From positions 135,883 to 199,882 of the forward strand of contig CAZRGC010000002.1 of assembly GCA_964599625.1 (NCBI GenBank): a stretch of 64,000 bases of DNA, read 5' to 3'. The position numbers and the translations under genes are program-made. The notes under the pieces were generated by a model that worked only from the letters and a program-made list of their open reading frames with translations, ran no database searches and was not told the DNA's origin. This DNA comes from an uncultured Gammaproteobacteria bacterium. Lineage in GTDB: Bacteria > Patescibacteriota > Microgenomatia > UBA8517. This document shows positions 7,946 through 56,235 of the stretch, piece after piece (position 1 is the first letter of the stretch; each line of letters opens with the position of its first letter).

Positions 7946-9607
7946 ATGGCCACCACACAGGACTTGTTGTCTATCTTGGAAAAATTGCAGGGCAAGGATC
8001 AAGAACGGGATACTTCACAATACCGCTATGTCATTTATGCCAGGAAATCCACAGAGGGGGAGGAACGGCAAGCCAGATCACTAGGCGATCAGGTTATTGA
8101 ATGTACCAAGCTGGCAAATAGTCGAGGATTAAAGTTACTCGCTCGTCCTATTAGCCCAATTGAAGAGAAGCAAAGTGCCAAAGAGCCTGACATCAGGCCG
8201 AAGTTTCGCAAGATGCTAGACGACATCAAACAGGGAAAATATGAGGGTATTATTGCCTGGCATCCTGATAGATTAGCTCGTAATATGAAAGATGCGGGAG
8301 AGATTATCGACTTACTGGACAAGCAAATCATAAAAGATTTACAGTTTGTGAGCTTCACTTTTGAGAATGACACGGCTGGCAAGATGCTTCTAGGTATGTC
8401 GTTTGTCCTCTCCAAGCAATATTCAGACAAGCTACGAGATGATGTTAAGCGTGGTATCAGGCGAAGCATTGAGGATGGTAAGTACTTGAGCAAAGCCAAG
8501 CACGGCTATTATCGGGATCGTAACATGATGCTTAGGCCGGACGGCAACAACTTTACTTTACTCAAAGAAGCCTGGCAGTTGAGGTTACAAGGGAAAACTC
8601 AAAAGGATATTGCCAAGTATCTGGCTGATAAAAATTACAAGCGAAGCGAGGGGGTTGGTGATATCACCCACAAGACAACAAAAATAACGGATAAAGTCTT
8701 ATCAGAGGTGTTTAAGGACACGTTTTACACTGGTGTCTTGAATTATGGCACAACTGGCTTGGTAGACTTAACCGAAGTTTACGATTTTGTTCCGATGGTG
8801 ACAGTTGATGAGTTTTTGAGGATCAACCGCTTTAGCGATATTAAGAAAGCCTTTGAGGTGAAGCGTAGAGGACTTAAAACAGATATTAAGGCTGACTTCT
8901 TGCGTAGGATCGTTTACTGTGGCCATTGTAACGAGCAGATGAGTACTGGCATCACTGTTAAGTACTCCAAGACTGGTAAAACCAACTATTTTAACTTTAG
9001 ATGCGATACTCCTGGATGCAAAATAACTCTACCAAGTGGCAGGAAAGTCAATCAGAACGTGCGTGGCAAGATTGTTTTAGACTTTGTGTACCAGTTCCTA
9101 GAGGAAAACAAATTCACCGATAAGCGAGCCTACAACCATTACTTACAGGAAATGAAGCACGTACAAGAGAACGAACGAAAGGAGCTTGAAGCCAGGAGAA
9201 AATCAATCCAAATAGCGGTTAAAGAGCTTGAGGAACGCATCAACCTCATAAAAGAATCACTATACAAGGAAACTGACAGTGAGATCAAAGATGAGTACAA
9301 GGCTGACTTGAAAGCCAAGAAAGCCCAACTTAAACAAGCCAACGATGAATTAACTAAGATTAAGGAGGCTAAAGCTAAAGGAAGCAAGGTTATATTGACT
9401 TACAAGGAGTTTGTCGAACTTTTCAATGAATTGCCCGATATATTGAGAAAAACGAAAACCATGGAGGGTAAAGATCAGATCATCCGAAAAATCTTCTCGA
9501 ACTTCATTCTCAAGGATAAAAAAGTGGCGTCATATAGGCTAAATCAACCATTCAAAGACTTCATTGATAAGGGCTATTTCGCCTCTAGTCGGGGTGCTGA
9601 GAATTGA
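7946..9607 (+). CDS. large serine recombinase (resolvase/invertase N-domain + recombinase domain + zinc ribbon + coiled coil)
   Basis: N-terminal YVIYARKSTEGEE carries the catalytic Ser of the resolvase fold. A Cys cluster CGHCNEQMS...FRCDTPGC forms a zinc ribbon. A long C-terminal coiled coil (ELEARRKSIQIAVKELEERINLIKE...) is typical of large serine integrases. 553 aa. Confidence 0.85.
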   Translation: MATTQDLLSILEKLQGKDQERDTSQYRYVIYARKSTEGEERQARSLGDQVIECTKLANSRGLKLLARPISPIEEKQSAKEPDIRPKFRKMLDDIKQGKYEGIIAWHPDRLARNMKDAGEIIDLLDKQIIKDLQFVSFTFENDTAGKMLLGMSFVLSKQYSDKLRDDVKRGIRRSIEDGKYLSKAKHGYYRDRNMMLRPDGNNFTLLKEAWQLRLQGKTQKDIAKYLADKNYKRSEGVGDITHKTTKITDKVLSEVFKDTFYTGVLNYGTTGLVDLTEVYDFVPMVTVDEFLRINRFSDIKKAFEVKRRGLKTDIKADFLRRIVYCGHCNEQMSTGITVKYSKTGKTNYFNFRCDTPGCKITLPSGRKVNQNVRGKIVLDFVYQFLEENKFTDKRAYNHYLQEMKHVQENERKELEARRKSIQIAVKELEERINLIKESLYKETDSEIKDEYKADLKAKKAQLKQANDELTKIKEAKAKGSKVILTYKEFVELFNELPDILRKTKTMEGKDQIIRKIFSNFILKDKKVASYRLNQPFKDFIDKGYFASSRGAEN

Positions 9608-9786
9608 ACTCAGTGCCTCTTGTACCCGAAACAAGCGGTCTACCGATGACCTACACCCCGATCTCGTCGAAACTCGAATCGCTGGCCGCACTAAAAATTT
9701 CTAATTTTCAGTGCTGACGCTCATCGGTTTCTCCTCTCAAATTTTCTTTGCAAATTTGGTTAAACACAAAACAGGAAACTGCTCTG

Positions 9787-9858
9787 TGCCCCCAGCAGGA
9801 ATCGAACTTGCATCTTGCCCTTAGGACGGGCCTACTCTGTCCATTGAGCTATGGGGGC
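9787..9858 (-). tRNA. tRNA-Arg (anticodon CCU)
   Basis: The reverse complement folds as a cloverleaf: acceptor GCCCCCA/TGGGGGC, D-arm GCTC/GAGT, anticodon stem GCCC/GGGC with loop GTCCTAA (anticodon CCT), T-loop TTCGATT. 72 nt with no encoded CCA. The T-stem has one A-C mismatch. Confidence 0.75.
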
Positions 9859-28180: not shown

Positions 28181-29131
28181 CTATCCGCGGTAGCGGATTG
28201 TCACTGTGGCGTTTGAGCCTTTGTCGATTGAAGGTTGGTTGACAACCCGGTTGACAACGACGTGTGCATTGCTGGAAAGTTCCAGATCTGCATCGGTAGC
28301 CGTTCCTTCAAATGTGACAGTTGCGTTACTTGCAGCGTCAACCACAAGTTTGGCTACCTCACCGGAACCTATGACAGCATGGCTATTGCTGGCAATATCA
28401 AGATTGAGCGTTCGGCCCATTGCTCGCTTGACACCAAATGTGGTGCCTGAAGCATTGTCTGCAACCGCGTTGAAGGCAGTCCCGCCAAAGTCAAACAGTG
28501 AGTTTGAAGCCTGTTCCACATCAAGCGATGTTGCAATTCCTTCGCCGATTGTCAGTGTTCCGTTGGAACCAATCTTGGCTTTAACCGCTCCATTAACTCG
28601 CTTCACATTAACTTTGGAGTTGGAGGGCACGGATACCTCAAGTGCAGTCACCTGACCGATGTTGGTGATCTCGCCCTTGGCCTTCATGCTTAGTGCGCAT
28701 TCAACATCTTCGACATTTACTTCGCCGCTTACGCTTCCAATTTCCAGACTCAGGCTTTTGGGAACGTAAACAGTGACACTGATGGGATCAACCTTTTGGC
28801 TTATCGAAATGGCCGAAAAGTTTCCACCGCCACTTAAGCTGAGTATGGTTGAATCAGTGACACCGCCTTCGATAATGAGCGTTGACGAGGCTTTGCCGTT
28901 TTCATCCTCACTCTGCAGGTTTATGACCGTTTGTTTCTTTTGCGGCCCGCCTGAAATGTGGAGTTTGGCTTCGCGTATGCCTGCGACAACACCCGAGATC
29001 GCTTCTTTATTGCCTTCAATTTCTACAACGATCTCGCGACCGATGATTGGTTTGATGGTAAGATTCCCGACCAAGTCGGTGACAACGACAGGCACAAGTG
29101 TGAACTTTTTGCTGATTTTGTCAGAGGCCAT
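28181..29131 (-). CDS. DUF4097-like beta-helical putative adhesin
   Basis: 316 aa of repetitive Gly/Val/Ser/Thr-rich beta strands (...VEIEGNKEAISGVVAGIREAKLHISGG...TVTIRYRG), characteristic of DUF4097/YvlB-type beta-helix proteins. Confidence 0.55.
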   Translation of the reverse strand: MASDKISKKFTLVPVVVTDLVGNLTIKPIIGREIVVEIEGNKEAISGVVAGIREAKLHISGGPQKKQTVINLQSEDENGKASSTLIIEGGVTDSTILSLSGGGNFSAISISQKVDPISVTVYVPKSLSLEIGSVSGEVNVEDVECALSMKAKGEITNIGQVTALEVSVPSNSKVNVKRVNGAVKAKIGSNGTLTIGEGIATSLDVEQASNSLFDFGGTAFNAVADNASGTTFGVKRAMGRTLNLDIASNSHAVIGSGEVAKLVVDAASNATVTFEGTATDADLELSSNAHVVVNRVVNQPSIDKGSNATVTIRYRG

Positions 29132-29305
29132 ATGGGCCCTCCATTCATTAAGATTCAGAATAATTGAAAGTGCTAACTCGAAGTCAAGATTATATCACTT
29201 CAAGCTCAAAAATCAACACTACAGGACATAATATATTTGATTAATAGCTTGTTATTGGGTAAAATTCGCACAAGCAAGAAATATATTGCAGATAAGGAGT
29301 CTTTC

Positions 29306-29986: not shown

Positions 29987-30074
29987 GCTAACCTCACAAA
30001 GCGAAATTTTTGAATTTGCTCCGCCGGTTACTTTTTAAATAACCGATGGAACGAATTCAAATTTATTTGTATCG

Positions 30075-30112
30075 GTACCGTCTACAAGTTCAAAAAATTG
30101 TAGACGGTACCA
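30075..30112. repeat. perfect 14-bp inverted repeat ggtaccgtctacaa-N10-ttgtagacggtacc
   Basis: Read directly from the sequence. Located 19 bp 3' of the GC-rich gene 30131-30802. Confidence 0.8.
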
Positions 30113-30130: not shown

Positions 30131-30802
30131 CTAGTTGTCGGCGAGAGCTTTGAACACATACGGTGCAATGCGAACGATGAAGTTCACGAGCGCCAGATAG
30201 ATGTTCATGGAAATCTCGACGGCGGCGGGCCAGGAATCTTCGGTGTACTGAAAGACAATCCGGTTGAAATGGAAGATCAGGTACACAAACCAGAACCCCG
30301 AGGCAAAGATGCCGATGAACCATTCAGCGCGTTGGCTTACAAACCCAACAAGCCCACCAATGGACAAGCCAAGGAGGACAATGAGGATGTAATAGAGCGG
30401 TCTCGCCAGAAACAGGAGGTTTACTCCGCTGAAAAGGCCGATCAATGACGCAACGAGGGTGGCACCAAATGCAATGCCCAACACGGTCAGGGTGGCGCGG
30501 TTGGTTTCTTCAGGGTCCATCTTGTTGAGAGCGCCCAATGCGGCAAAGAAACCACCGAGGTCAGCGGCCACTGCGGCTCCAAACACAAAGAGTGTGCCGT
30601 AGATGAGGAACGCGTTGCCTGTGGCCACGACCGGAGGAATCACAAACCAGATCATGACCAGGGCGAGCACGAAGCTTCCCAAAATCACAAGCCAGTTGAA
30701 GTAGTTCCGGAAAATGTAGGCGGCAATGGTTCCACCGATGAGCATGGTTACGAGCAACTCAAGTGAGCGCTCGAGCAAAGCGATTTGATCAGGTGTGATC
30801 AT
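30131..30802 (-). CDS. polytopic membrane protein (GC-rich gene)
   Basis: 223 aa with at least six hydrophobic helices. Local GC is visibly higher (~55%) than the flanks. Confidence 0.55.
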   Translation of the reverse strand: MITPDQIALLERSLELLVTMLIGGTIAAYIFRNYFNWLVILGSFVLALVMIWFVIPPVVATGNAFLIYGTLFVFGAAVAADLGGFFAALGALNKMDPEETNRATLTVLGIAFGATLVASLIGLFSGVNLLFLARPLYYILIVLLGLSIGGLVGFVSQRAEWFIGIFASGFWFVYLIFHFNRIVFQYTEDSWPAAVEISMNIYLALVNFIVRIAPYVFKALADN

Positions 30803-32645: not shown

Positions 32646-33521
32646 ATGCGAAAATTCTTAGCGGTACTGATTGCGTTTTTTGGCCTTTTAGCCTTTGGGG
32701 CAACCTCTTTGGTGGCCAAAACCCCAACACCATCCCCCACGCCTACTGCTGTTGCCACACCCACACCCGAACCTCCCAGGGTGGACATTACCCAAAAGAG
32801 TGAAGAAAGCCTTGGACCTTTGGAAATGCTACTTAAAACTCAGGAAGTTGGCCCAACTTGGCCGTGGAATCCTGTCAAAACCGCCATCAGGGGGGCAGTG
32901 GATAGCGGGGTTCCTGCAAACACAATTGTACTTCTCCTTCTTTTACCGATTGTGGCTTTTGTTATCGCCTTTTCCAGAAACGTTGTAGGTATTCGCGGAT
33001 TCGGTATTTTTATGCCCGCGGCACTTTCTGTGGTGTTTGTGGCCACGGGGCCGGTTGTGGGGATTGCCGTATTTTTGGTGATCGTTATTGTTTCCACCGC
33101 GGTGAGACTTGCACTCAGAAAAGTCAAACTCAGACTCCAGTATTTGCCCAGGATGGCATTTATATTGTGGGGGGTGGTTCTTGGGGTTTTGGGAGTCCTT
33201 TTTACCGCACCCATTATCAAATATCCCGACCTTTCAAATGTTTCTATTTTTGCAATTCTGATCATGATTCTTTTGGCGGAGGACTTTACCCGAGTTCAGC
33301 TTGGCAAAAGTGCCAAAACAGCCCTAGGGCTTACATTTGAAACTTTGATTTTGGCACTTATTTCATTCCTGTTTTTGACTCTACAGCCTTTGCAAAATTA
33401 CGTTCTTCTTAATCCCGAGGCGTCCCTTATCGGTATAGCCATCTTGGACCTCCTTCTTGGGAAATATACTGGGCTTAGGGCAATGGAGTTCTACAGGTTC
33501 AGAAAACTTATCAAAAACTAA
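32646..33521 (+). CDS. secreted 7TM-type membrane protein (first gene of ATP-grasp operon)
   Basis: Signal peptide MRKFLAVLIAFFGLLAFGATSLVA, Pro/Thr linker TPTPSPTPTAVATPTPEPP, a ~50-aa extracytoplasmic segment, then about seven hydrophobic helices to the C-terminus. 291 aa. Confidence 0.6.
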   Translation: MRKFLAVLIAFFGLLAFGATSLVAKTPTPSPTPTAVATPTPEPPRVDITQKSEESLGPLEMLLKTQEVGPTWPWNPVKTAIRGAVDSGVPANTIVLLLLLPIVAFVIAFSRNVVGIRGFGIFMPAALSVVFVATGPVVGIAVFLVIVIVSTAVRLALRKVKLRLQYLPRMAFILWGVVLGVLGVLFTAPIIKYPDLSNVSIFAILIMILLAEDFTRVQLGKSAKTALGLTFETLILALISFLFLTLQPLQNYVLLNPEASLIGIAILDLLLGKYTGLRAMEFYRFRKLIKN

Positions 33522-33533
33522 AAACTGACTTAA

Positions 33534-34829
33534 ATGAAAATCTCATCCATCTTGGGTTTGAACGCCAGAACTCAGCTTTTTGCTTACCGCTACAACTCAA
33601 AGGCAGGCAAAAAAGTTGCGGATTCCAAATTGCAAACTGCAAGAGTTCTTAAGCACGAGGGTGTGCCTCATCCTACAATCTACAAAAAGTTTCGCGACCC
33701 GCAACAGGTGTTGGATTTTGATTGGATGCGCCTTCCCGAAAAGTTTGCCCTAAAGCCAAGCAGGGGTTTGGGTGGTGCCGGAATAATTGTTGTAAAGAAA
33801 AAGTCTGCAGACGGGAAAGGGTGGTTCACCACTCAAAAAGAAAAAGTAACACCCGATGATCTTAAACTTCATACTTTGGATATTCTCGAGGGTGCTTTTT
33901 CGTTGGGTAGTGAGCCCGATGTTGCTTTTGTCCAGGAGTATGTAGGTCGGCACGAAGCTTTCCGTAAATGGGCATTCAGAGGCACCCCCGATGTACGTGT
34001 AATTGTATTCAACAAAGTCCCGATTATGGCAATGTTAAGACTTCCCACCAGGGAATCGGGGGGGCGTGCCAACTTGCACCAAGGCGCACTTGGTGTGGGT
34101 GTAGATATTGCAACAGGTGTAACAACACGGGCAATATGGCATGGCGACCCGATTGTTTTCAAACCCGGCACGGACAAAAAACTCAGGGGAATTAAAGTTC
34201 CTGAGTGGGAGAATGTACTAATGACTGCAGTTAATGCCCAGGTGGCATCAGGATTGACATATATTGGTGTAGACATCGTGCTTCATCCAACAAAAGGCCC
34301 AATGGTTTTGGAGCTTAACGCCCAACCCGGACTTCAAATTCAGCTTGCCAATATGGAAGGCCTCAAAAAACGCCTGGAAAGGGTGGAAGACTTGGATGTA
34401 AGTGACGCCAAACATGGAGTCATGATTGCCAAGGCTCTTTTTGCTGGGCGATTTGCCAGCGCAAAGGCAATGGAAGCCGGGGTTAAGACTATTAAAAACG
34501 ATGAAGTAGTAAAAATACTTCTGCCCAACGGCAGGCGTGTGACGGTAAATGCCAAAGTGGACACCGGTGCGTGGAGAAGCTCGATTGATAAGTCGTTTGC
34601 CGAACGTCACGGTTTATTGGATAATGAAAATGTACTTTGGACCAAGGTTTTCAAAAGTGCATTGGGAAGTGAAAAACGCCCTGTAATCAACCTGAGTTAT
34701 TATCTGGCGGGAAACAAGATCAATACAATGGCGTCAGTAGCCAATAGGGGCAACCTCAAAAAAGAATTCATAATTGGCAGACGGGATTTGCAGGGATTTG
34801 TTGTAAAAGTTAACGATTACACGAAGTGA
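33534..34829 (+). CDS. ATP-grasp ligase fused to C-terminal retropepsin-like aspartic peptidase domain
   Basis: The N-terminal ~300 aa show the ATP-grasp pattern (KPSRGLGGAGIIVV, VQEYVGRHEAFR, DVRVIVFNKVPIMAMLR). The C-terminal ~110 aa have VTVNAKVDTGAWRSSID (D-T-G-A active-site motif of retropepsin-like 'Zn_protease' domains) and ...IIGRRDLQGFVVKV. Confidence 0.65.
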   Translation: MKISSILGLNARTQLFAYRYNSKAGKKVADSKLQTARVLKHEGVPHPTIYKKFRDPQQVLDFDWMRLPEKFALKPSRGLGGAGIIVVKKKSADGKGWFTTQKEKVTPDDLKLHTLDILEGAFSLGSEPDVAFVQEYVGRHEAFRKWAFRGTPDVRVIVFNKVPIMAMLRLPTRESGGRANLHQGALGVGVDIATGVTTRAIWHGDPIVFKPGTDKKLRGIKVPEWENVLMTAVNAQVASGLTYIGVDIVLHPTKGPMVLELNAQPGLQIQLANMEGLKKRLERVEDLDVSDAKHGVMIAKALFAGRFASAKAMEAGVKTIKNDEVVKILLPNGRRVTVNAKVDTGAWRSSIDKSFAERHGLLDNENVLWTKVFKSALGSEKRPVINLSYYLAGNKINTMASVANRGNLKKEFIIGRRDLQGFVVKVNDYTK

Positions 34830-34848
34830 TGAAATACACAAAAAGATA

Positions 34849-35745
34849 ATGGAGCAAAAGAAAATACTAATACTGGTAACCAAAATAAGTGAAACCAAAA
34901 ACAGGTTTTACGATGCCATAAGTGCAAAAATCTCCAAAGATGTAAAAGTTGATTTAGCCGTTTTTTCGGATATTGGAGTAGTTATTGATGGAGAAAAGAC
35001 TTCGGTTTTCATTGATGACACAGACATCAAAAATTACAACCTTATATACATAAGGAGATCTGGTGAGGAATACAAAAAGCTGGCTTCAATTGTTGCGCTT
35101 TATTGCCATTCCAAGGGGGTCAAGTGTTTGGATTCCGCCAACAGGGAAGCGGGAACTTTTTCCAACAAGTTGTATTCACTTCTTAAACTTCACAACGAAG
35201 GTTTTCCTGTCATACCCACCGTTATGGTCAACAGGAAAAAAGTTTTGCAGGAGGCGGACGGACTTGTTGCCAGATTTGGTTTACCGATGGTTGCCAAAGA
35301 TACTCATTCCCAACGCGGTAAAGGAGTTTTTTTGATCAAAGAAAAAGATGACTTCCAAACGGTTTTGGACAAAGTTTCCGACAATCAGCTGATGTTTCAA
35401 AAGTTTATAGAAAAGAAAAGAGAATACAGGGTTCTTGTTCTCAGAAACAAAATAGGTTGTTTCGAAGAAAAAGTAGCAGACCCTGGAGAGTTTCGGAACA
35501 ATGTTTCCCTGGGTGCTGCCGAGCTTTTTTTGGACATAGATTCTATCCCCACAACACTCAAAGACTTGGCTGTAAATGCCGCGGGGGCATTGGGGATTGA
35601 GATTGCAGGCGTAGACATTATAGAAGCGGTTGATGGCAACGATTACATTTTGGAAGTAAACAGGGGCCCGGGACTTACGTATGATTCTTCCGAATCTCCC
35701 GAAACCGCTAACATAGCAAAATTCCTGGAGGAGGAAGTCCAATGA
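34849..35745 (+). CDS. RimK-like ATP-grasp ligase (alpha-L-glutamate-ligase family)
   Basis: Pre-ATP-grasp region LIYIRRSGE..., GLPMVAKDTHSQRGKGVFLIKEKDDF and FQKFIEKKREYRVLVLRNK (central domain), GVDIIEAVDGNDYILEVNRGPGL (catalytic Mg site). 298 aa. Confidence 0.75.
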   Translation: MEQKKILILVTKISETKNRFYDAISAKISKDVKVDLAVFSDIGVVIDGEKTSVFIDDTDIKNYNLIYIRRSGEEYKKLASIVALYCHSKGVKCLDSANREAGTFSNKLYSLLKLHNEGFPVIPTVMVNRKKVLQEADGLVARFGLPMVAKDTHSQRGKGVFLIKEKDDFQTVLDKVSDNQLMFQKFIEKKREYRVLVLRNKIGCFEEKVADPGEFRNNVSLGAAELFLDIDSIPTTLKDLAVNAAGALGIEIAGVDIIEAVDGNDYILEVNRGPGLTYDSSESPETANIAKFLEEEVQ

Positions 35746-36680
35746 AAAATATCGGCATCTGTTTCTCCAAAGAATTTGAAGGTGATAACCCCCTGGGTCA
35801 CATTGGCGTAAAACTTCCTGTTTATACAAGGCTTTTAGATCTTTTGGTTAAAGCGGGTTATTCGGCATTTGTATTGACAAAAAAGACATATGTTGGCGGC
35901 GGTGTCTTTGATGGTGTTTGGGAGTGGGGGGATATGGGTTTTGAAAAGCTGGACGAAAAAGTGCAGATGGATTTGGTGTATGACAGAAGCGCAGGCGTGG
36001 GTTTCCCACCCGAAGATGACGGGGTAATCTGGGTCAATAGAATCAGTTTTAAGACACTTTGCTGGGATAAATGGGCTGGGTTTAAAGAAATCGGTGAATA
36101 TATGCCTCAAACAGTGTTAGTTGAGTCGGAATCTGACATATCTAAAGCTGTGGAAGAAATAAAAACCGATTGGGTAGTTCTCAAACCTTTCAACGGACTC
36201 AAAGGTCTTGGGGTATTTATCGGACCAAAAGATGAAGCCGTAAGGTTTAAGTTCCCCGAAAAATACAAAAAATACATTGCACAGGAATTTGTGGACACAT
36301 CAAAAGGTATTACCGGTGTGACACCGGGTAAACACGACTTGAGAGTGGCGGTGGTAAATAGAGAACCTGTTTGGTGCCATGTAAGAGTCCCGGCAGAAGG
36401 AACATATTTGGCAAATGCGGCTCAGGGCGGAAACCTAACCGAAGTTGATTACAATAATGTTCCATCTGAGATAAAAAAGGTCGTGGAATCGGTTTCGGAG
36501 AAGTTCTATCAAGAACACGACAACCCCATTTTCAGTTTAGATTTCGGCATGAATTTTGACGGAAGGCCTTTGATTTTTGAAATAAATGATCAAATAGGTT
36601 TTCCCAAATGGGAAATGAACAATAGAGATATTTTTTTGAAAGCATTGGTTGCAAACTTCAGTTCAAAGCTTGGCAAGTGA
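35742..36680 (+). CDS. ATP-grasp-fold ligase (third, divergent)
   Basis: VLKPFNGLKGLGVFIGPKDEAV and ...KHDLRVAVVNREPVWCHVRVP...LDFGMNFDGRPLIFEINDQIGFP follow the ATP-grasp order. Start overlaps the previous gene by 4 bp. Confidence 0.6.
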   Translation: MKNIGICFSKEFEGDNPLGHIGVKLPVYTRLLDLLVKAGYSAFVLTKKTYVGGGVFDGVWEWGDMGFEKLDEKVQMDLVYDRSAGVGFPPEDDGVIWVNRISFKTLCWDKWAGFKEIGEYMPQTVLVESESDISKAVEEIKTDWVVLKPFNGLKGLGVFIGPKDEAVRFKFPEKYKKYIAQEFVDTSKGITGVTPGKHDLRVAVVNREPVWCHVRVPAEGTYLANAAQGGNLTEVDYNNVPSEIKKVVESVSEKFYQEHDNPIFSLDFGMNFDGRPLIFEINDQIGFPKWEMNNRDIFLKALVANFSSKLGK

Positions 36681-48633: not shown

Positions 48634-49677
48634 ATGTTTAATTATTTCTTAATTTTTTGGACTTCAACGCTCCCGTTTTTTGTATTAAACGGATACTACG
48701 AAAAGCCTAAATTTGCAGTTTTTTTGGCAGGAACTTTTATTACCTTTTTGTATTGGTTAAAAAACAAAATACCATTGATTCTGAATATTTCAAAGGCAGA
48801 CTATTTATATATAGGTTGGTTTTTGATACTTGTTGTTTCTTCGATGGTGTTTGGAGATGTTGATCGTTCGGTAACAGGGGAGGGTAACAGATATCTTGGA
48901 ATCCTGTTTTTTATGGGACTTTGGGTGGTTAGTAAATCTGTCCAAATAATGCCGGAAAAACATAAATCGCTAATGGGCAGCATTTTTGGGTATGCTGCTT
49001 TAATCCAAAGCATTATTCTTTTGGCGCAGATTGTTGCAGGCCAGGTTTACTTCTTAAGGCCTTTGGGAACCGTTGGGGATGCCAATCAGGCAGCTGGGCT
49101 TATTATTCTGGGTTTATATTTTGTAACCGAATATCTGCCTGGTGTTTTTGCTGTTTTTCCAGCTTTAGCAATACTTCTCACTTGGTCCAAATCCGGAATA
49201 ATCTCTATTCTGGTTTTTTCAGGAGCATTTTTTGGCAAAATGAATAAAAAGATTTCAGCAATATTTATTTTTGGTCTACTAACATTGTTTGTAATTTTTT
49301 CGGTATCAACTTCCCAAACATCTTCAAAATTTGAAGACAGAAAAGTGATCTGGCCCAAGTCCCTTGAGATTGTTTTGCAAAGTCCTGTTGTTGGTCACGG
49401 GTTGGGGATAACAGACAAGCTTTTTTCTGAGTCATTCAAAACCACAGGTACACCAATTGAATCATTAAGAATTGATAGCGCCCATAATATCTTTTTGGAT
49501 GTAGCCATTTGGTCGGGTGGAGTCGGCGTATTTGTGTTTCTATACTATATATACTCAATATTCAAAACGCTTGAAAACCGGAAAAGAATTGCTGCGTTGG
49601 CCTTTTTGGCGTTTGCAACATTCCAGCCTTTAAGTGTTTCTCATTGGTTGTGGTTTACAATTTTGATTTTTGTTTGA
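48634..49677 (+). CDS. O-antigen-ligase-family (Wzy_C-like) membrane protein
   Basis: About 10 TM helices. Loop motif SKSGIISILV...VGHGLGITDKLF...DSAHNIFLDVAIWSGGVG. 347 aa. Confidence 0.6.
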   Translation: MFNYFLIFWTSTLPFFVLNGYYEKPKFAVFLAGTFITFLYWLKNKIPLILNISKADYLYIGWFLILVVSSMVFGDVDRSVTGEGNRYLGILFFMGLWVVSKSVQIMPEKHKSLMGSIFGYAALIQSIILLAQIVAGQVYFLRPLGTVGDANQAAGLIILGLYFVTEYLPGVFAVFPALAILLTWSKSGIISILVFSGAFFGKMNKKISAIFIFGLLTLFVIFSVSTSQTSSKFEDRKVIWPKSLEIVLQSPVVGHGLGITDKLFSESFKTTGTPIESLRIDSAHNIFLDVAIWSGGVGVFVFLYYIYSIFKTLENRKRIAALAFLAFATFQPLSVSHWLWFTILIFV

Positions 49678-50848: not shown

Positions 50849-51154
50849 TTACGCTTCTTGGACATCTTCAGTCTCCACGTCGAAGATGGCGTAAGGATCA
50901 TCTGCTTCAGATTCAACAGGCACCTGTAACCAGGGGAGGCGGCCAGTCGGGAGTGCGTTGTGTTGCTTGTTCTCGGCCGGGTTTTTCCGATCATGCAGGT
51001 TTGCGTGCTTCATCCAGGTGTGCGGGTGACATTTGCGGCAGGTGGGATCATCGCCTGAGTCCTTGGGGTCGCAGATGCATCTGGGATGACACTTCGGGCA
51101 TTTCTTCTTTTTGCCTGAGTTGACCGGGTCACAAATACACTTAATCGAATCCAT
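50849..51154 (-). CDS. Cys/His-rich small protein with duplicated C-x-C-D-P...C-P-K-C-H-P module (GC-rich gene)
   Basis: MDSIKCICDPVNSGKKKKCPKCHPRCICDPKDSGDDPTCRKCHPHTWMKH... has two copies of CICDP-x7-8-C(P/R)KCHP. Local GC is clearly elevated. 101 aa. Confidence 0.5.
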   Translation of the reverse strand: MDSIKCICDPVNSGKKKKCPKCHPRCICDPKDSGDDPTCRKCHPHTWMKHANLHDRKNPAENKQHNALPTGRLPWLQVPVESEADDPYAIFDVETEDVQEA

Positions 51155-52530: not shown

Positions 52531-52546
52531 ATCTTTGGTGCACACC

Positions 52547-52583
52547 TCTAAATTTCAAAAAGAGGTGTACACCAGGTATTAAT
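52547..52583. terminator. hairpin between convergent MFS gene and paralog 1
   Basis: ggtgcacacctct-aaatttcaaaa-agaggtgtacacc. No strong U-tract on either side. Confidence 0.35.
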
Positions 52584-52603: not shown

Positions 52604-53005
52604 TTAGATCAGTCCAACTGCGGACAGGATGGTCATCTCATCAATGCCATGATCGGCAAAGAACTTGTCGATGTCATCAACGCTGTTCGCCTGACTGTCG
52701 ACCTCGTGGATCAACTCCGCAAAAAGCATCGCAACAGGCTTGCCGGCTTGGACTTCGTCTGCCAGTTGGGTGTGAGTCCAGCCGCGGCCCTTCATAACGA
52801 CTTCGTTGCGGGCTTTGCCTTGGTTCTCACCACGGATGCGTATGGTCATGTGCTCGACGGGTTCGTCTTTCTCGTTGTACGCCAGCGGGCGGTCGCAGAA
52901 AGGATTTCCGCAATCGCAGGGCGCCCAGTAAAAGACTTCGCCGTTGTAAAGGAACTTCTCACCTTCTTCGGGGAGAGCGTTCGGGTTACCATTCCATTCG
53001 TTCAT
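52604..53005 (-). CDS. paralog 1 of Zn-knuckle small-protein family (conserved N-domain, variable C-terminus)
   Basis: MNEWNGNPNALPEEGEKFLYNGEVFYWAPCDCGNPFCDRPLAYNEKDEPVEHMTIRIRGENQG... shares W-x-P-C-D-C-G-N-P-x-C-x-R-P and MT(I/V)R-x-RG-x-x-QG with three neighbours. RBS GGAGGCAGAAATG. Confidence 0.65.
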   Translation of the reverse strand: MNEWNGNPNALPEEGEKFLYNGEVFYWAPCDCGNPFCDRPLAYNEKDEPVEHMTIRIRGENQGKARNEVVMKGRGWTHTQLADEVQAGKPVAMLFAELIHEVDSQANSVDDIDKFFADHGIDEMTILSAVGLI

Positions 53006-53057
53006 TTCTGCCTCCAGATTTAAAGAATGACGGAAAATTTTGAATACTTACACTGGG

Positions 53058-53092
53058 GAGATGGTAGCACAAAAAATTGAGGAAGTCAACAT
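53058..53092 (-). promoter_or_regulatory. sigma-70-like promoter of paralog 1 (TTGACT-N17-TACCAT)
   Basis: Minus strand: ACCCCATAATGTTGACTTCCTCAATTTTTTGTGCTACCATCTCC. The same ATAATGTTGACTT block recurs upstream of paralogs 2 and 4. Confidence 0.5.
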
Positions 53093-53114
53093 TATGGGGT
53101 GTTTTTGGTTAAAG

Positions 53115-53162
53115 CTGTGCAGTTCTTCAAGTCTTTCAAATAAATGAAGAACTGCACTTTTT
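53115..53162. terminator. hairpin 3' of paralog 2 (gtgcagttcttca...tgaagaactgcac + T-run)
   Basis: 13-bp perfect stem. T-run on the plus side, A-run on the minus side. Confidence 0.4.
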
Positions 53163-53172
53163 TTGAGCAGAG

Positions 53173-53676
53173 TCAGTTATTGCCGAAGCTCCACGGACCG
53201 TTGGAAGACGGGCGAAGGCCGCCAAAACTGTTTTGAATCAGGTTTGCGCGCCTAAGCATGTCACCAAGGCCGAAAGCTTCCATGATCAGTGCTTGGATGT
53301 AGGTGTTGAATTCTTCGCGAGTGATCAAGCCTTTGCCGAACGGGTCCTGTTCAAGGTAATATTTGAATAATTCCAGGAGGGCCTCGTCGCCGCCGTTTTC
53401 AATCGCTTCAACAACTTCATCGGTGTTTGCGCCGATCTTGTATAACAGGTCGATTTCCGGCTTGCCCGTGTCGGTGCCGCGGACTCGGATTGTCATACCT
53501 CTTGCGGTCTTGCCATCTTCATGGAAGGCCAGGGGGCGTGTGCAATACGGGTTGCCGCAGTCGCAGGGGTGCCAGTAATAGACTGTCTGCTTGTACATGT
53601 ACAACTCGTCTGCCGGTGGCAGTTGAGTGGAATCCCCGTTCCATTCGTGGATTCCGAGAGGATTAGTCTTAGGCAT
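53173..53676 (-). CDS. paralog 2 of Zn-knuckle small-protein family
   Basis: ...HEWNGDSTQLPPADELYMYKQTVYYWHPCDCGNPYCTRPLAFHEDGKTARGMTIRVRGTDTGKP... 167 aa. C-terminal 90 aa unrelated to the other paralogs. Confidence 0.65.
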   Translation of the reverse strand: MPKTNPLGIHEWNGDSTQLPPADELYMYKQTVYYWHPCDCGNPYCTRPLAFHEDGKTARGMTIRVRGTDTGKPEIDLLYKIGANTDEVVEAIENGGDEALLELFKYYLEQDPFGKGLITREEFNTYIQALIMEAFGLGDMLRRANLIQNSFGGLRPSSNGPWSFGNN

Positions 53677-53711
53677 GTGAGCCTCCTTTGATAAAGAAAA
53701 ACCCTATGGAG

Positions 53712-53745
53712 GGGATTATAGCACTTTTGATTTCAAAGTCAACAT
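53712..53745 (-). promoter_or_regulatory. sigma-70-like promoter of paralog 2 (TTGACT-N16-TATAAT)
   Basis: Minus strand: CCTATAATGTTGACTTTGAAATCAAAAGTGCTATAATCCCC. Confidence 0.55.
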
Positions 53746-53795
53746 TATAGGTTGTATCTCATCTTTGAAACCGGGTACAATACCTACTTTTAGCC

Positions 53796-53838
53796 ACAAA
53801 AAAGAGACACGCCCCAAGTTTCAAAATGAGCGTGTCTC
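53796..53838 (-). terminator. rho-independent terminator 3' of paralog 3
   Basis: Minus strand: gagacacgc-tcattttgaaacttgggg-cgtgtctc followed by ttttttgtgg. Confidence 0.55.
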
Positions 53839-53867
53839 AAGTCCTAAAAAACAATTTTATGAACTTT

Positions 53868-54380
53868 TCAGTTCAAATGGCTATTTCGGCCCGGATCGTT
53901 GCCAAAATCTTCCCCGAGAATGTTTCTCAGAGCCGCCAGTGCATCGTCGCCGGTGAGAATCTGGAACGGGGATTCGTTGCCAATTTCGTCGAATTCTTCC
54001 TTGGCTTCCAGGTAATCTTCTTCGGTGATGTCATGGTCAGACAAAGCCGCCAGGTTGATGGTTCCGGTTGCTTCGATTTCTTCGACAAAGCCCAGCCAGA
54101 TCTCAACAATGTTCTCGCCACTTGCGCCGTGAGCCAGTGCAATGCGCTCAATGCCGTAGTACTTAACGAGAAGGTTCTCAAGATCCATGCCTTGATTTGT
54201 ACCGCGCAGGCGGACAGTCATGGGGAAGTCGGGAACTCCAAGTTCTCTGAATGCTTCGGGTCGGCCGCAGAAAGGATTTCCGCAGTTGCATCTTTCCCAA
54301 AAATAAGTTTGCCCTTCGTATTCAAAAGGCTCGCGTTCGGGTGGAAGAGGTGCGCCAACCGTCCATTTATTTAAATTCAT
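53868..54380 (-). CDS. paralog 3 of Zn-knuckle small-protein family
   Basis: MNLNKWTVGAPLPPEREPFEYEGQTYFWERCNCGNPFCGRPEAFRELGVPDFPMTVRLRGTNQG... The motif is varied to E-R-C-N-C-G-N-P-F-C-G-R-P. 170 aa with an acidic C-terminus. Confidence 0.6.
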   Translation of the reverse strand: MNLNKWTVGAPLPPEREPFEYEGQTYFWERCNCGNPFCGRPEAFRELGVPDFPMTVRLRGTNQGMDLENLLVKYYGIERIALAHGASGENIVEIWLGFVEEIEATGTINLAALSDHDITEEDYLEAKEEFDEIGNESPFQILTGDDALAALRNILGEDFGNDPGRNSHLN

Positions 54381-54455
54381 TTCAGCCTCCGTAAAGGATG
54401 GAAATATGTGCGAAGTCAGAAGGATATCACAAATTAAAGATAAAATTAAATTTCA

Positions 54456-54494
54456 AGCACACCGCCTCAGTCTTCAAAAATGAAGCGGCGTGCT
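54456..54494 (-). terminator. hairpin terminator 3' of paralog 4
   Basis: agcacaccgcctca-N11-tgaagcggcgtgct. U-rich on the minus strand after the stem (UGAAAUUUAAUUUUAUC). Confidence 0.45.
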
Positions 54495-54504
54495 TTGGGT
54501 TTGC

Positions 54505-54921
54505 CTACATCAAGGCCATCATGAAGCTGATGAATTCCATATTGTCAACGTTATTGTCCACCAAAAGTTTGGGACCAACTTCGCGGAATTCGGTGTCGAA
54601 TTTCTTGACGGCTTCGAGTATGGCTTCGGCATAGCCGCGATGGTCTTCGGCGGCCATCATCAGATTGATCTCAACCAGGCGTTCCATGTCGATGATTCCC
54701 GTCTTGAGAAGGACGTTTTCAACAGGGTTGCCCTGATCGGTGCCGCGCGCGCGGGTGGTGAGTGCATCGTCACGAGCTTCGGTGTCAACGCTGTAGACCA
54801 CCGGCCGTTTGCAGTACTCACTGCCACAATCGCAGGGATGCCAGACGTAGCGCTTGTCTTCGTAAAGGAACTGAACTCCCTCTGCGGGAAGTTCTTCTGC
54901 TTTACCATTCCATTGGATCAT
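54505..54921 (-). CDS. paralog 4 of Zn-knuckle small-protein family
   Basis: MIQWNGKAEELPAEGVQFLYEDKRYVWHPCDCGSEYCKRPVVYSVDTEARDDALTTRARGTDQG... 138 aa. RBS GGAGGCAGAAATG. Confidence 0.65.
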   Translation of the reverse strand: MIQWNGKAEELPAEGVQFLYEDKRYVWHPCDCGSEYCKRPVVYSVDTEARDDALTTRARGTDQGNPVENVLLKTGIIDMERLVEINLMMAAEDHRGYAEAILEAVKKFDTEFREVGPKLLVDNNVDNMEFISFMMALM

Positions 54922-54971
54922 TTCTGCCTCCGGTTATTTAAGGATAATGGTAGATTGAAAACACTAACAGG

Positions 54972-55006
54972 AAAATATTATAAGATAAACACAAAAAAGT
55001 CAAATT
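54972..55006 (-). promoter_or_regulatory. sigma-70-like promoter of paralog 4 (TTGACT-N15/17-TATAAT/TAATAT)
   Basis: Minus strand: CCCCATAATTTGACTTTTTTGTGTTTATCTTATAATATTTTCC. Confidence 0.5.
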
Positions 55007-55049
55007 ATGGGGTAATAGTGGAATGTTTGAGTAAAAAAATTGGGGAACT

Positions 55050-55145
55050 GAAGTAATTTGAAAAAATTACTTACGACGAAGGCGAAGTAATTAGAAAAAT
55101 TATTTACGTTGAAAACGAAGTAATTAGAAAAATTACTTAACAGGC
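55050..55145. repeat. three tandem ~33-bp repeats, each containing inverted repeat AAGTAATT-N6/7-AATTACTT
   Basis: gaagtaatttgaaaaaattacttacgacgaaggc / gaagtaattagaaaaattatttacgttgaaaac / gaagtaattagaaaaattacttaacaggc. Lies ~45-140 bp upstream of the paralog-4 promoter and just 3' of gene 55203-55595. Confidence 0.8.
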
Positions 55146-55180
55146 AACCAAACTTAAAAAAGTGGCTGCCTGTTAAGGCG
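55129..55180 (-). terminator. hairpin terminator 3' of 55203-55595 (cttaacaggca...tgcctgttaag)
   Basis: 11-bp perfect stem. On the minus strand the loop/stem region contains GCCACUUUUUUAAG. Confidence 0.45.
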
Positions 55181-55202: not shown

Positions 55203-55595
55203 CTATGAAGGCTGTTCGTCGCTGGTGACGGGCTTCTTGGTGCGGGGCTTGCGAATGATGGTGGGCTTGCGAGCGGGTACGTCGCGAATGCCAGCCTTCT
55301 TGGCAGAGTCCTTGACCAAATTCAGAGCCGTTCCGGTTTCGACCTTGTTTTCCATCGCTTCGTAGAGCGCGCCGAGGTCGGCGACCAGTTTGCGATATTG
55401 AGCGGCGCGGGCATCGGAAGCCTCTTTGTCAGCCTTGGTGGCGTTGTACAAAGCGAGTTCGTTGATGCGGGCGGCATTGGGCAAACCGGCTTGGCGTAAC
55501 ACTTCGTCGAATGCGACTGCGTTGAACTTCTTGGCACCAGTCTTGGCGCGCAAGGTGGTCCACCACGTGCGGATAGCAATCCAAAGTCCGATCAT
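55203..55595 (-). CDS. hypothetical protein with N-terminal hydrophobic helix (GC-rich gene)
   Basis: MIGLWIAIRTWWTTL... then an Ala/Lys-rich soluble region. 130 aa. GC-rich like the paralog array. Confidence 0.45.
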   Translation of the reverse strand: MIGLWIAIRTWWTTLRAKTGAKKFNAVAFDEVLRQAGLPNAARINELALYNATKADKEASDARAAQYRKLVADLGALYEAMENKVETGTALNLVKDSAKKAGIRDVPARKPTIIRKPRTKKPVTSDEQPS

Positions 55596-55854
55596 TTCAT
55601 CCTCCGTAAAAAGGTTGATTTGAATATAATTGAGTGCAAACTAACTGCATTGCTTCTTCAGCAATGGGAACATACTAACATATCCTGTAGTATTTGTCAA
55701 GTACGACAACAACTTTTTTGCACAGAATGCCGAAAATATAAAGCAAAAACTCAGGGATGTCAAAATTTAGCCTTGTTATTGATACTTTTTGTCTGTGTTA
55801 CAATCTTTTGGGTTGCACTTTGTACAAGGAAATATATATCTAAGGAGACAGGAA

Positions 55855-56235
55855 ATGCCGAAGAAAAAGAAAAAGGACCCAGGTCTTCCCAAAGGTCCAA
55901 AAGTAACAATTTTCTTTCGTGGGGATTTGATCCAAGGGGTCAGGGCCAAAGACGGCTCGGTTTACGGCGAAAACGGTCACCGCTACCTTGCGGATGAAAC
56001 CGGTCGCTATCACTATGCCGACGGCACCCTGGAGGTAACTAGGCCCAAGTACACGATTGCCGATCTCGGGCGGTTCATATCAAGGGCCGATGGAATGTAC
56101 CAGGTTCAGGAATCAGACGGAGAGTTCAAGGCTGTAAAAGTCTTGGGTACGCCCGTACCAATTGTTTCTCTGAGTTTGGACAACATCCACCGTTACGGCC
56201 GTTATCCCGCAAGCAGAACAAAGGTGACTGGCTGA
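55855..56235 (+). CDS. hypothetical protein (Lys-rich N-terminus)
   Basis: ORF 55789..56235 started at MPKKKKKDPGLPKGPK, preceded by ggagacaggaa RBS. 126 aa. Confidence 0.45.
   Translation: MPKKKKKDPGLPKGPKVTIFFRGDLIQGVRAKDGSVYGENGHRYLADETGRYHYADGTLEVTRPKYTIADLGRFISRADGMYQVQESDGEFKAVKVLGTPVPIVSLSLDNIHRYGRYPASRTKVTG

Follow-up and report, generated by a model that had tools for sequence, protein, structure and literature searches.

A tandem array of four paralogous genes encodes members of an apparently undescribed protein family in Patescibacteria

We asked what is encoded by four consecutive minus-strand genes at positions 52604-54921 of a 64,000-nucleotide stretch of DNA from an uncultured bacterium placed by GTDB in the Patescibacteriota (contig CAZRGC010000002.1, positions 135,883 to 199,882; the whole stretch is called the window below), and how their products can share an N-terminal module and still differ so widely in their C-terminal halves. 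Patescibacteria account for a large part of the diversity of bacteria; they are reduced episymbionts, and many of their genes are of unknown function. An earlier note, made from the letters of the DNA alone, had described the genes as paralogues with a zinc-knuckle N-domain and unrelated tails, in a block of foreign composition, and had likened them to toxin/immunity families and anti-defence loci. Sequence comparisons show that the four proteins belong to an undescribed family which, as far as the data go, is confined to Patescibacteria (the Candidate Phyla Radiation, CPR).

The four paralogues and their family

The list of open reading frames (ORFs) bore out the four minus-strand genes, with products of 133, 167, 170 and 138 amino acids (aa). 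Paralogue 1, the 138-type (54505-54921, 138 aa), ends in MALM, matches the family profile with an E-value of 1.4e-31, has a ratio of nonsynonymous to synonymous substitution rates (dN/dS) of 0.11-0.22 and groups with L2_138, L19_137 and L8_135 in a neighbour-joining tree. Paralogue 2, the 170-type (53868-54380, 170 aa), has a very acidic tail (isoelectric point, pI, of 4.05) with a disordered end, GRNSHLN. The tail of paralogue 3, the 167-type (53173-53676, 167 aa), is also disordered and ends in NGPWSFGNN; this is the copy best kept between strains, at 98% nucleotide (nt) identity, and paralogue 4, the 133-type (52604-53005, 133 aa), is the copy that varies most. Compared with orthologues from three other assemblies, the four genes had dN/dS values of 0.04-0.15 in the N-half and 0-0.36 in the C-half. 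Between strains dN/dS was 0.04-0.36; the four ORFs are therefore real genes under purifying selection. Three plus-strand ORFs (52649-53023, 53826-54374 and 54490-55056; 124, 182 and 188 aa) overlap the family genes in antisense, and two of them exceed the true genes in length. These long antisense ORFs are a by-product of minus-strand coding that is rich in guanine and cytosine at third codon positions (GC3), and they could mislead gene callers.

Is the shared N-terminal motif real? An alignment of the four proteins contained 17 invariant positions (W4, L11, P12, Y20, W27, C30, C32, G33, C37, R39, P40, T54, R56, R58, G59, G63 and K72), among them a C-x-C-x4-C motif, two Trp residues, an L-P pair, an R-P pair and the loop T-x-R-x-R-G-x3-G, and a profile of the module retrieved ∼55 further clusters, so the motif is not illusory. 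Pairwise identity was 40-44% in the first ∼75 aa and 33-35% over the full length. The module that the earlier note had put at 60 aa is thus real, with a size of ∼75-80 aa.

To see the family at all required an exhaustive search. The N-module profile was run by exhaustive HMMER against 1.84 billion cluster representatives and gave 70 matches, comprising ∼55 family clusters (44 at E ≤ 1e-10) of 78-239 aa, mostly 130-175 aa, with the module at the N terminus. The remaining matches were large and split over multiple stretches; these were cadherin, Ig and Calx-beta repeat proteins and were rejected as spurious. When 5.8 billion proteins were searched by word index, nothing came up beyond the window's own proteins and two variants, and a word-indexed search with the 59-sequence alignment found only 5 proteins. 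All family members come from metagenomes or metagenome-assembled genomes, and the named sources are 'Patescibacteria group bacterium' (through the neighbouring gene of the major facilitator superfamily, MFS) and a complete 'Candidatus Woesebacteria' genome. No homologue was present in IMG/VR, INPHARED phages or PLSDB plasmids, and scans of GTDB genome representatives, JGI metagenome contigs and IMG/VR gave no family relatives. The family is missing from nearly all other bacteria, most sampled Patescibacteria included. The four proteins had no match in Pfam, NCBIfam, PHROGs or PADLOC, and the profile of 59 family members had none among PDB sequences, which agrees with the earlier view that the module cannot be assigned to a named domain. 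The statistics given below on motifs, terminal residues and column conservation were taken over these 59 members.

Do the N-module and the tail form separate domains? We built an AlphaFold model of the 167-aa protein from the 59-sequence alignment, and the prediction was confident (mean predicted local distance difference test score, pLDDT, 88, with residues 1-130 above 94; predicted template modelling score, pTM, 0.75). In the model, short strands (26-28, 31-37 and 48-52) hold the Cys motif and form the beta-hairpin of the N-module, helices occupy residues 59-66, 73-80, 85-109, 120-134 and 137-150, and residues 151-167 are disordered. The N-module and the helical 'tail' are thus predicted to pack as one compact domain, and the model had no fold relative in the PDB or in viral structure sets. 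The positions conserved throughout the family (167-aa numbering) are W12, G14, L19, P20, F26, Y28, W35, C38, C40, C45, R47, P48, T62, R66, G67, D/N69 and G71. The three Cys residues are kept in 97-98% of members, in the motif C-x-C-x(1-5)-C with a gap between the second and third Cys of 4, 1, 3 or 2 residues, and a Cys3 metal site in the N-module is plausible. No fourth Cys or His ligand was seen among the 59 members, as the fraction of His or Cys is at most 0.08 outside the three Cys columns, and there is no conserved His or Ser column. Of the 'three Cys plus a nearby His' on which the zinc-knuckle proposal had been based, the Cys residues stand and the His does not: it precedes the first Cys in 8% of members, and the Cys2-His-Cys set is absent. 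The proteins are small (105-175 aa across the family) and acidic (pI 4.3-4.8; tails ∼4.1-4.4), and by inspection neither a signal peptide nor a membrane segment can be recognised in them.

By BLAST, the four window tails have no similarity to one another. They are not, however, the unrelated and hypervariable segments that had been proposed, since each tail type is a subtype conserved across genomes. Grouping by tail similarity gave 11 clusters of the 167-type, 7 of the 170-type, 4 of the 133-type and 18 of a KLGKMEEL-type that is not present in the window; the 138-type comprised only the window protein and one strain variant, and by whole-protein comparison it also takes the same-position genes in the related loci L008 and L019 (P0009, P0015). 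Profile comparison related the 170-type tails to the KLGKMEEL-type at 88% and both of these to the 133-type at ∼40%, and it detected no relation of the 167- and 138-type tails to other tails. A motif, [ILVM]-[STDN]-x-x-[EDQ]-hydrophobic, usually at positions 112-141, was found in 28 of the 59 members compared to 6.7 ± 2.2 in shuffled tails. Together with the single domain of the AlphaFold model, this means that the C-halves are diverged helical halves of one domain and not unrelated modules. In a neighbour-joining tree (no bootstrap) the paralogues group across genomes by subtype, which corresponds to array position, and the gene order in L019 (138-, 170-, 167-, 133-type) is that of the window. 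The best-matching family proteins of the window and its relatives are ∼37-45% identical where measured. As the subtype order is the same in L019, whose orthologues are only 30-45% identical, the four-gene set is old and does not come from a recent local burst of duplication; the description as a tandem array of paralogues holds in that the N-half is conserved, the C-halves are strongly diverged and each gene is transcribed separately, with a promoter and a hairpin of its own.

Many of the tails end in the same residue. A C-terminal Asn is found in 23 of the 59 members (Asn background, 4.9%), and it is concentrated in two subtypes, with 7 of 7 170-type and 8 of 11 167-type clusters (15 of 18 overall, the window's 167- and 170-aa proteins included). 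It stands after a disordered linker rich in Gly, Ser and Pro and is usually preceded by an aromatic residue or Leu (...SFGNN, ...SHLN, ...GIFN, ...FWPN). Could it reflect recoding of the stop codon? The terminal Asn is encoded by AAC or AAT, the stop codons TGA, TAG and TAA all occur, and readthrough would run into the hairpin that follows the gene. Recoding is thereby ruled out, and the terminal Asn is a feature of the protein. We know of no precedent for a conserved C-terminal Asn in folded proteins of such size; the case that comes nearest is MccA, which also ends in Asn.

Promoters, 3' hairpins and upstream repeats

Do the genes carry common expression signals? The three near-identical promoters reported earlier are present: three genes carry CATAAT(G)TTGACTT followed by a -10 element, and the box abuts the -35 element. 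On the minus strand, the promoter of paralogue 1 (54975-55012) consists of CCCCATAAT-TTGACT, 17 nt and TAATAT, that of paralogue 3 (53715-53752) of CCTATAATG-TTGACT, 16 nt and (TG)TATAAT, and that of paralogue 4 (53061-53099) of CCCCATAATG-TTGACT, 17 nt and (TG)TACCAT. Paralogue 2 (170 aa) is without the family promoter box. The box, written as [CT]ATA[AG]T-N0-3-TTGAC, occurs four times in the 64 kb of the window, three times before family genes, and in the loci of the lineage 13 of 15 copies precede family genes, even at 30-45% protein identity. The context of the ribosome-binding site that three genes were thought to have in common, GGAGGCAGAAATG, is exact in two of them and has one mismatch in the third.

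At the 3' ends, a hairpin had been noted after three of the four genes. All four have one (folding free energy, dG, -21 to -27 kcal/mol; z-score, z, -4 to -6.2), and a proper U-tract follows only that of the 170-aa gene. The hairpin of paralogue 1 (54455-54495, minus strand like the others) has a 15-bp stem and an 11-nt loop, uuuuugaagac (dG -25.6, z -6.0); that of paralogue 2 (53804-53838) has an 11-bp stem, the loop auuuugaaacuug and a UUUUUU tract and is the sole canonical intrinsic terminator of the four; that of paralogue 3 (53116-53158) has a 14-bp stem and the 15-nt loop uuuauuugaaagacu; and that of paralogue 4 (52536-52574) has a 14-bp stem and the loop uuuugaaauuu. A hairpin of this kind was found in 21 of 21 cassettes, with a stem of 11-19 bp and an unusually large loop that contains TTTGA or TTGAA in 15 of the 21. 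Although the arms vary between paralogues, their complementarity is kept. Elsewhere in the window, terminators have a short loop and then a T-run. Because a proper U-tract is seen only after the 170-aa gene, the hairpins without one may do more than end transcription. Rfam gave nothing real in the locus, only chance mir-22 matches on one hairpin. At low confidence, the shared promoter box and the type of 3' hairpin could make the genes one regulon of autonomous cassettes.

The fourth box in the window, TATAATCTTGACTT (29181-29194, minus strand, within 29175-29206), precedes an ORF (28181-29131) with a weak match to the DUF2807 adhesin head, and a 16-bp hairpin with the loop uuuuga (30074-30111) follows a GC3-rich Bax1-I-like gene (30131-30802). 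Both genes may be further members of the same regulon.

Directly upstream of the array lies p130 (55203-55595, minus strand), an unannotated, Ala/Lys-rich protein of 130 aa whose gene has the highest GC3 of the window (0.71). It is followed by a hairpin of the same type as those of the family genes (55136-55177), and homologues occupy the equivalent position in L006, L016 (46% identity) and L019. Just upstream of the promoter of paralogue 1, after the p130 hairpin, there are three 33-nt tandem units (55050-55160), each with the palindrome AAGTAATT-N5/6-AATTACTT. Strain L006 has kept two of the three units intact, and the repeat is absent from L016 and L019; the units possibly form an operator or iteron array upstream of paralogue 1. 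The p130 leader (55596-55780, minus strand) consists of two tandem sigma-70-like promoters, a short hairpin that varies between genomes and an invariant GTTAGTTTGCACTYAAT box. It is kept in L006, L016 and L019 though the p130 proteins of the window and L016 are only 46% identical; it has no Rfam match and may be a cis-regulatory RNA.

Genomic site, composition and divergence

Where does the array lie in related genomes? We found it at one chromosomal site in the window and in L001/L006/L007, L002, L008, L016/L017, L019 and L013. The order at the site is a C39-like peptidase, Ddl, a methyltransferase-like gene of 370-426 aa, an RfaE-II-like nucleotidyltransferase, a divergently oriented partner of 125-130 aa, p130 and 1-6 family genes; beyond the array follow the MFS gene, a Cys-rich protein of 98-101 aa, GDP-mannose dehydratase (GMD) and Wzy. 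The surroundings are cell-envelope glycan genes. The number of family genes is 4 in the window, 3 in L008, 2 in L016 (both 170-type), 1 in L013 and 6 in L019. The partner of the window is a basic protein of 126 aa (55855-56235, plus strand; MPKKKKKDPG...) that diverges from the array and is a recurrent neighbour: homologues of 34-70% identity stand beside the family in five lineage loci (L006, L008, L013/L014 and L016), and the partner family numbers nine proteins, all without annotation. Neither the partner nor p130 had a PADLOC, PHROG or Pfam match, the Cys-rich neighbour had no PADLOC match, and PDB sequence searches gave nothing significant for any of the three. The Cys-rich protein (50849-51154, minus strand, 101 aa, GC3 0.62) carries the motif C-x-C-D-P...C-x-K-C-H-P twice and has an acidic tail. 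In L019, a family member of 145 aa stands between MFS and GDP-mannose dehydratase, which is the place of the Cys-rich gene in the window.

The block is GC-rich, as had been reported (49.5% GC compared to 42.3% for the window; 0.51-0.55 in the four genes compared to a gene mean of 0.437), and GC3 is 0.53-0.67 in the four genes compared to a gene mean of 0.431 (SD 0.09). Is this composition foreign? The family genes, p130, the partner and the Cys-rich gene have high GC3 in every relative, and the spacers are AT-rich (0.32-0.40). The array occupies the same syntenic chromosomal site even in relatives with family proteins of only 37-45% identity, and GC and GC3 are high in all of them, so the composition cannot be called foreign and recent horizontal transfer was rejected as its source. 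Translational selection as a source of the high GC3 looks unlikely, as the L7/L12 gene has a GC3 of only 0.40. The cause may be GC-biased gene conversion at a recombination hotspot.

We compared the divergence of the family with that of its neighbours. Between the window and L016, amino acid identity was 93% for Ddl, 95% for GMD, 90.5% for the C39 peptidase, 80% for the MFS protein, 70% for the partner, 46% for p130 and ∼43% for the best family matches. Wzy_C, an O-antigen polymerase/ligase-like protein (48634-49677 in the window, 13416-14465 in L016), was 45% identical. As Wzy_C reaches only 45% whereas Ddl and GMD reach 93-95%, the array lies inside a cell-surface glycan region that is generally variable. 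At closer range, one strain matches the window at 97-100% in the flanks, yet only at 54% nt identity in the C-half of the 133-aa gene; for the same strain pair the values are 85% for the 170-aa gene, 89% for the 138-aa gene and 98% for the 167-aa gene. The synonymous rate (dS) climbs along with the nonsynonymous rate (dN), to ∼1.5 in the 133-aa gene (compared with strain L001) against 0.07 in the 167-aa gene, which points to an exchange of old alleles through recombination at this strain hotspot rather than to simple positive selection.

Two loci show the family in other surroundings. In L018 (CP066686.1, 1060755-1078985), the complete Candidatus Woesebacteria genome, two members are found among ∼25 small unannotated ORFs, several of which are paralogous pairs or membrane proteins; four of these ORFs are preceded by the family promoter box, and the run adjoins a VirD4/TraG-like ATPase of 780 aa. 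It may be a mobile or secretion-related island and is the sole hint of a mobile context for the family. In L012 (6614-7907) there is a triple tandem array of a divergent short subtype (104-121 aa), in which two of three members end in Asn and two of three keep the promoter box; the neighbours are a membrane glycosyltransferase-like protein, a Macro-domain protein and a protein that is ParB-like by eye. In the window itself, two more distant regions may be mentioned. A large serine recombinase (553 aa, Resolvase N-terminal domain) adjoins tRNA-Pro(CGG) and tRNA-Arg(CCT) at 7946-9858, 43 kb from the array, and may mark the edge of an integrated element. At 32646-36680, a seven-transmembrane membrane protein of the inactive-transglutaminase type stands with three ATP-grasp ligases (ATPgrasp_ST and two RimK-like); the cluster is a predicted peptide-ligation or modification system, and a link to the Asn-ending tails is speculative.

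Candidate functions and known systems

What could such proteins do? We tentatively favour, by analogy and as the leading one of several possibilities, that they are co-regulated intracellular binding or adaptor proteins (or antagonists) engaged in evolutionary conflict. In this view a target common to all of them would be bound by the conserved N-half, which is probably stabilised by metal and contains the invariant T-x-R-x-R-G-x-(D/N)-x-G loop. Specificity would come from the helical half, which evolves fast, and, in the members that have it, from the terminal hydrophobic-x-x-Asn peptide; the surface that sets it would be caught in a conflict whose other side may be phage, competitors or the bacterium that hosts the episymbiont. 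A conflict at this surface is suggested by the rapid divergence, the change in copy number and the presence of very divergent alleles in near-identical strains. Fast divergence, a strain hotspot and a copy number of 1-6 also fit the general idea of a conflict, but the specific reading in the earlier note (unrelated effector tails, foreign composition, toxin/immunity genes or anti-CRISPRs) finds no support in the genomic context or in the structure of the family. Several observations weigh against our proposal. Nowhere does the average dN/dS reach 1, and the variable genes have a raised dS as well; the hotspot could therefore reflect recombination of divergent alleles or relaxed constraint and not positive selection. 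Between strains the 167-aa paralogue hardly changes, and neither L019 nor the divergent contexts L012 and L018 have the basic partner gene. Four old subtypes kept in one order would fit a housekeeping hetero-complex equally well, and the mechanism as proposed rests on general analogy.

A housekeeping role is the first of the rival explanations. The four subtypes would then be isoforms or subunits of a module particular to the lineage, with a housekeeping or metal-handling task, such as a hetero-oligomeric regulator, a Cys3 metallochaperone or a redox set, with the divergence due to weak constraint on small helical proteins. The age of the four subtypes and the gene order kept in distant genomes speak for it, as do purifying selection throughout, the near-invariance of the 167-type between strains and an invariant Cys3 motif with weak local likeness to the YHS/TRASH hairpin and to the CxCxC knuckle of DUF6527. 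However, relatives have 1, 2, 3 or 6 copies with differing sets of subtypes, alleles diverge to an extreme degree in otherwise near-identical strains, family identity is far below that of housekeeping neighbours for one genome pair, and nearly all other bacteria, most sampled Patescibacteria among them, do without the family; we consider this explanation doubtful, though the best of the rivals. That the array encodes immunity proteins against polymorphic toxins, orphan immunity genes included, as first suggested, appears unlikely. The array resembles immunity-gene arrays in its general features (small, acidic, cytoplasmic tandem paralogues with rapid evolution, strain polymorphism and changing copy number), but the annotated neighbours of the window and of six related loci (∼10 kb) include no toxin-domain, secretion-system or Rhs/CDI-type gene and no toxin- or defence-linked gene at all, no PADLOC or Pfam immunity family is matched, and the N-half is conserved far beyond what is usual for immunity proteins, with the order of four subtypes kept over long distances.

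The terminal Asn raises the question whether a modification or conjugation pathway acts on the C termini of these proteins, as its substrates or tags. The Asn tail would then be activated like MccA by MccB or like the C termini of Pup or ubiquitin-like (Ubl) proteins, or an ATP-grasp ligase would extend it. MccB adenylates a C-terminal Asn (PMC4010828, PMC6495379), and MccA precursors of microcin C-like compounds likewise have a conserved Asn at a flexible peptide end. The enrichment of Asn at the end of a disordered linker in 15 of 18 clusters of two tail groups, three RimK-type ATP-grasp genes at 33534-36680, weak UBA-like matches in the tails and the weak CxCxC likeness to BubE of the Bub ubiquitination-like operons are consistent with such a role. 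Yet MccA is a peptide of 7-56 aa that is always encoded beside the E1-like MccB (PMC4010828), whereas the Asn-ending proteins of the window are folded, have 167-170 aa (10-20 times the length of MccA) and come from two of its four genes; only ∼40% of members have the Asn end. The window genes that were scanned and the related loci gave no ThiF/E1, E2, JAB or MccB-like gene, the fold differs from a beta-grasp, and the ATP-grasp cluster, 17 kb off, was seen in none of the related loci. We regard this role as highly improbable. Least probable of all, in our estimate, is that the genes serve anti-defence, as anti-CRISPRs or as DNA mimics against restriction, or are other accessory genes from a mobile element that now resides in the chromosome. 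They share size, charge and individual strong promoters with the small acidic anti-defence proteins of phages, they deviate in GC, and the Woesebacteria pair lies among its ∼25 small ORFs near a VirD4/TraG-like ATPase; on the other side, every relative in the window's lineage has the locus at the same chromosomal position, integrase and phage genes are absent within 10 kb and no helix-turn-helix (aca-like) regulator is adjacent, no homologue occurs in the phage and plasmid collections searched (IMG/VR, INPHARED and PLSDB), and the high GC3 persists over long divergence without decay towards the genome average.

Elements of these readings can be joined. In a bolder version of the proposed conflict, to which we give little credence, the locus would belong to a system specific to Patescibacteria: a regulon of cassettes (promoter box, ORF, large-loop hairpin) coding for a new Cys3 metal-binding fold, in which the Asn tail would serve as a handle for covalent modification, conjugation or docking on a conserved machine, and a hypervariable helical face would recognise changing targets of host or phage. 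Such a system, if real, would amount to a new type of module for protein tagging or host interaction in episymbiotic bacteria. Should the variable face follow targets of host or phage, the family would mark strain-specific interactions in CPR bacteria and might help to determine them; if the proteins form a housekeeping module, they would define a lineage-specific cellular function. Under either reading the locus offers a small and well-defined object for work on structure and interactions.

Finally, we asked whether the proteins could belong to a system that is already described. The array is not a product of a diversity-generating retroelement, as the window contains no repeat of the 3' halves of the array and no YxDD context like that of a reverse transcriptase. 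Integron cassettes were rejected too, since the hairpins have perfect 11-15-bp stems without GTTRRRY cores and no tyrosine recombinase was seen near the array among the part of the window ORFs that was scanned. Weak local resemblances exist to metal-binding proteins. DUF6527/BubE (PF20137), the serine protease of bacterial Bub ubiquitination-like operons, has a beta-hairpin followed by a zinc knuckle of the C-x-C-x-C type, which our family resembles locally, and its Pfam model gave weak matches in 5 of the 59 members (best 17.9 bits compared to a gathering threshold of 23.6; profile positions 4-30 of 63) and none in the four window proteins. BubE is a beta-sandwich with a C4 zinc finger, whose fourth Cys is distal, and a Ser-His catalytic dyad (10.1101/2024.11.21.623953). 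The family, in contrast, is predicted to combine a hairpin with a helical bundle and lacks a conserved Ser, His or fourth Cys, and the neighbours in the window, L006, L008, L016 and L019 encode no ThiF, E2, JAB or Ubl domains of a Bub operon. With YHS/TRASH (PF04945, PF08394) the family shares a local 'Y-x-G-x-x-Y-Y-aromatic-C...C' hairpin; two YHS-repeat proteins were among the weakest matches of the family profile, hhalign gave 18% against a YHS protein, and the YHS/TRASH Pfam models had no match in the 59 members. The cysteines of TRASH are spaced as C-X19-22-C-X3-C, those of the family as C-x-C-x1-5-C, and the classical zinc knuckle, CX2CX4HX4C, differs from the family motif C-x-C-x(1-5)-C in its Cys2-His-Cys set as well as in spacing. 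The defining features of every known family that we considered were tested in this way and none of them fits, and by exclusion the family is new.

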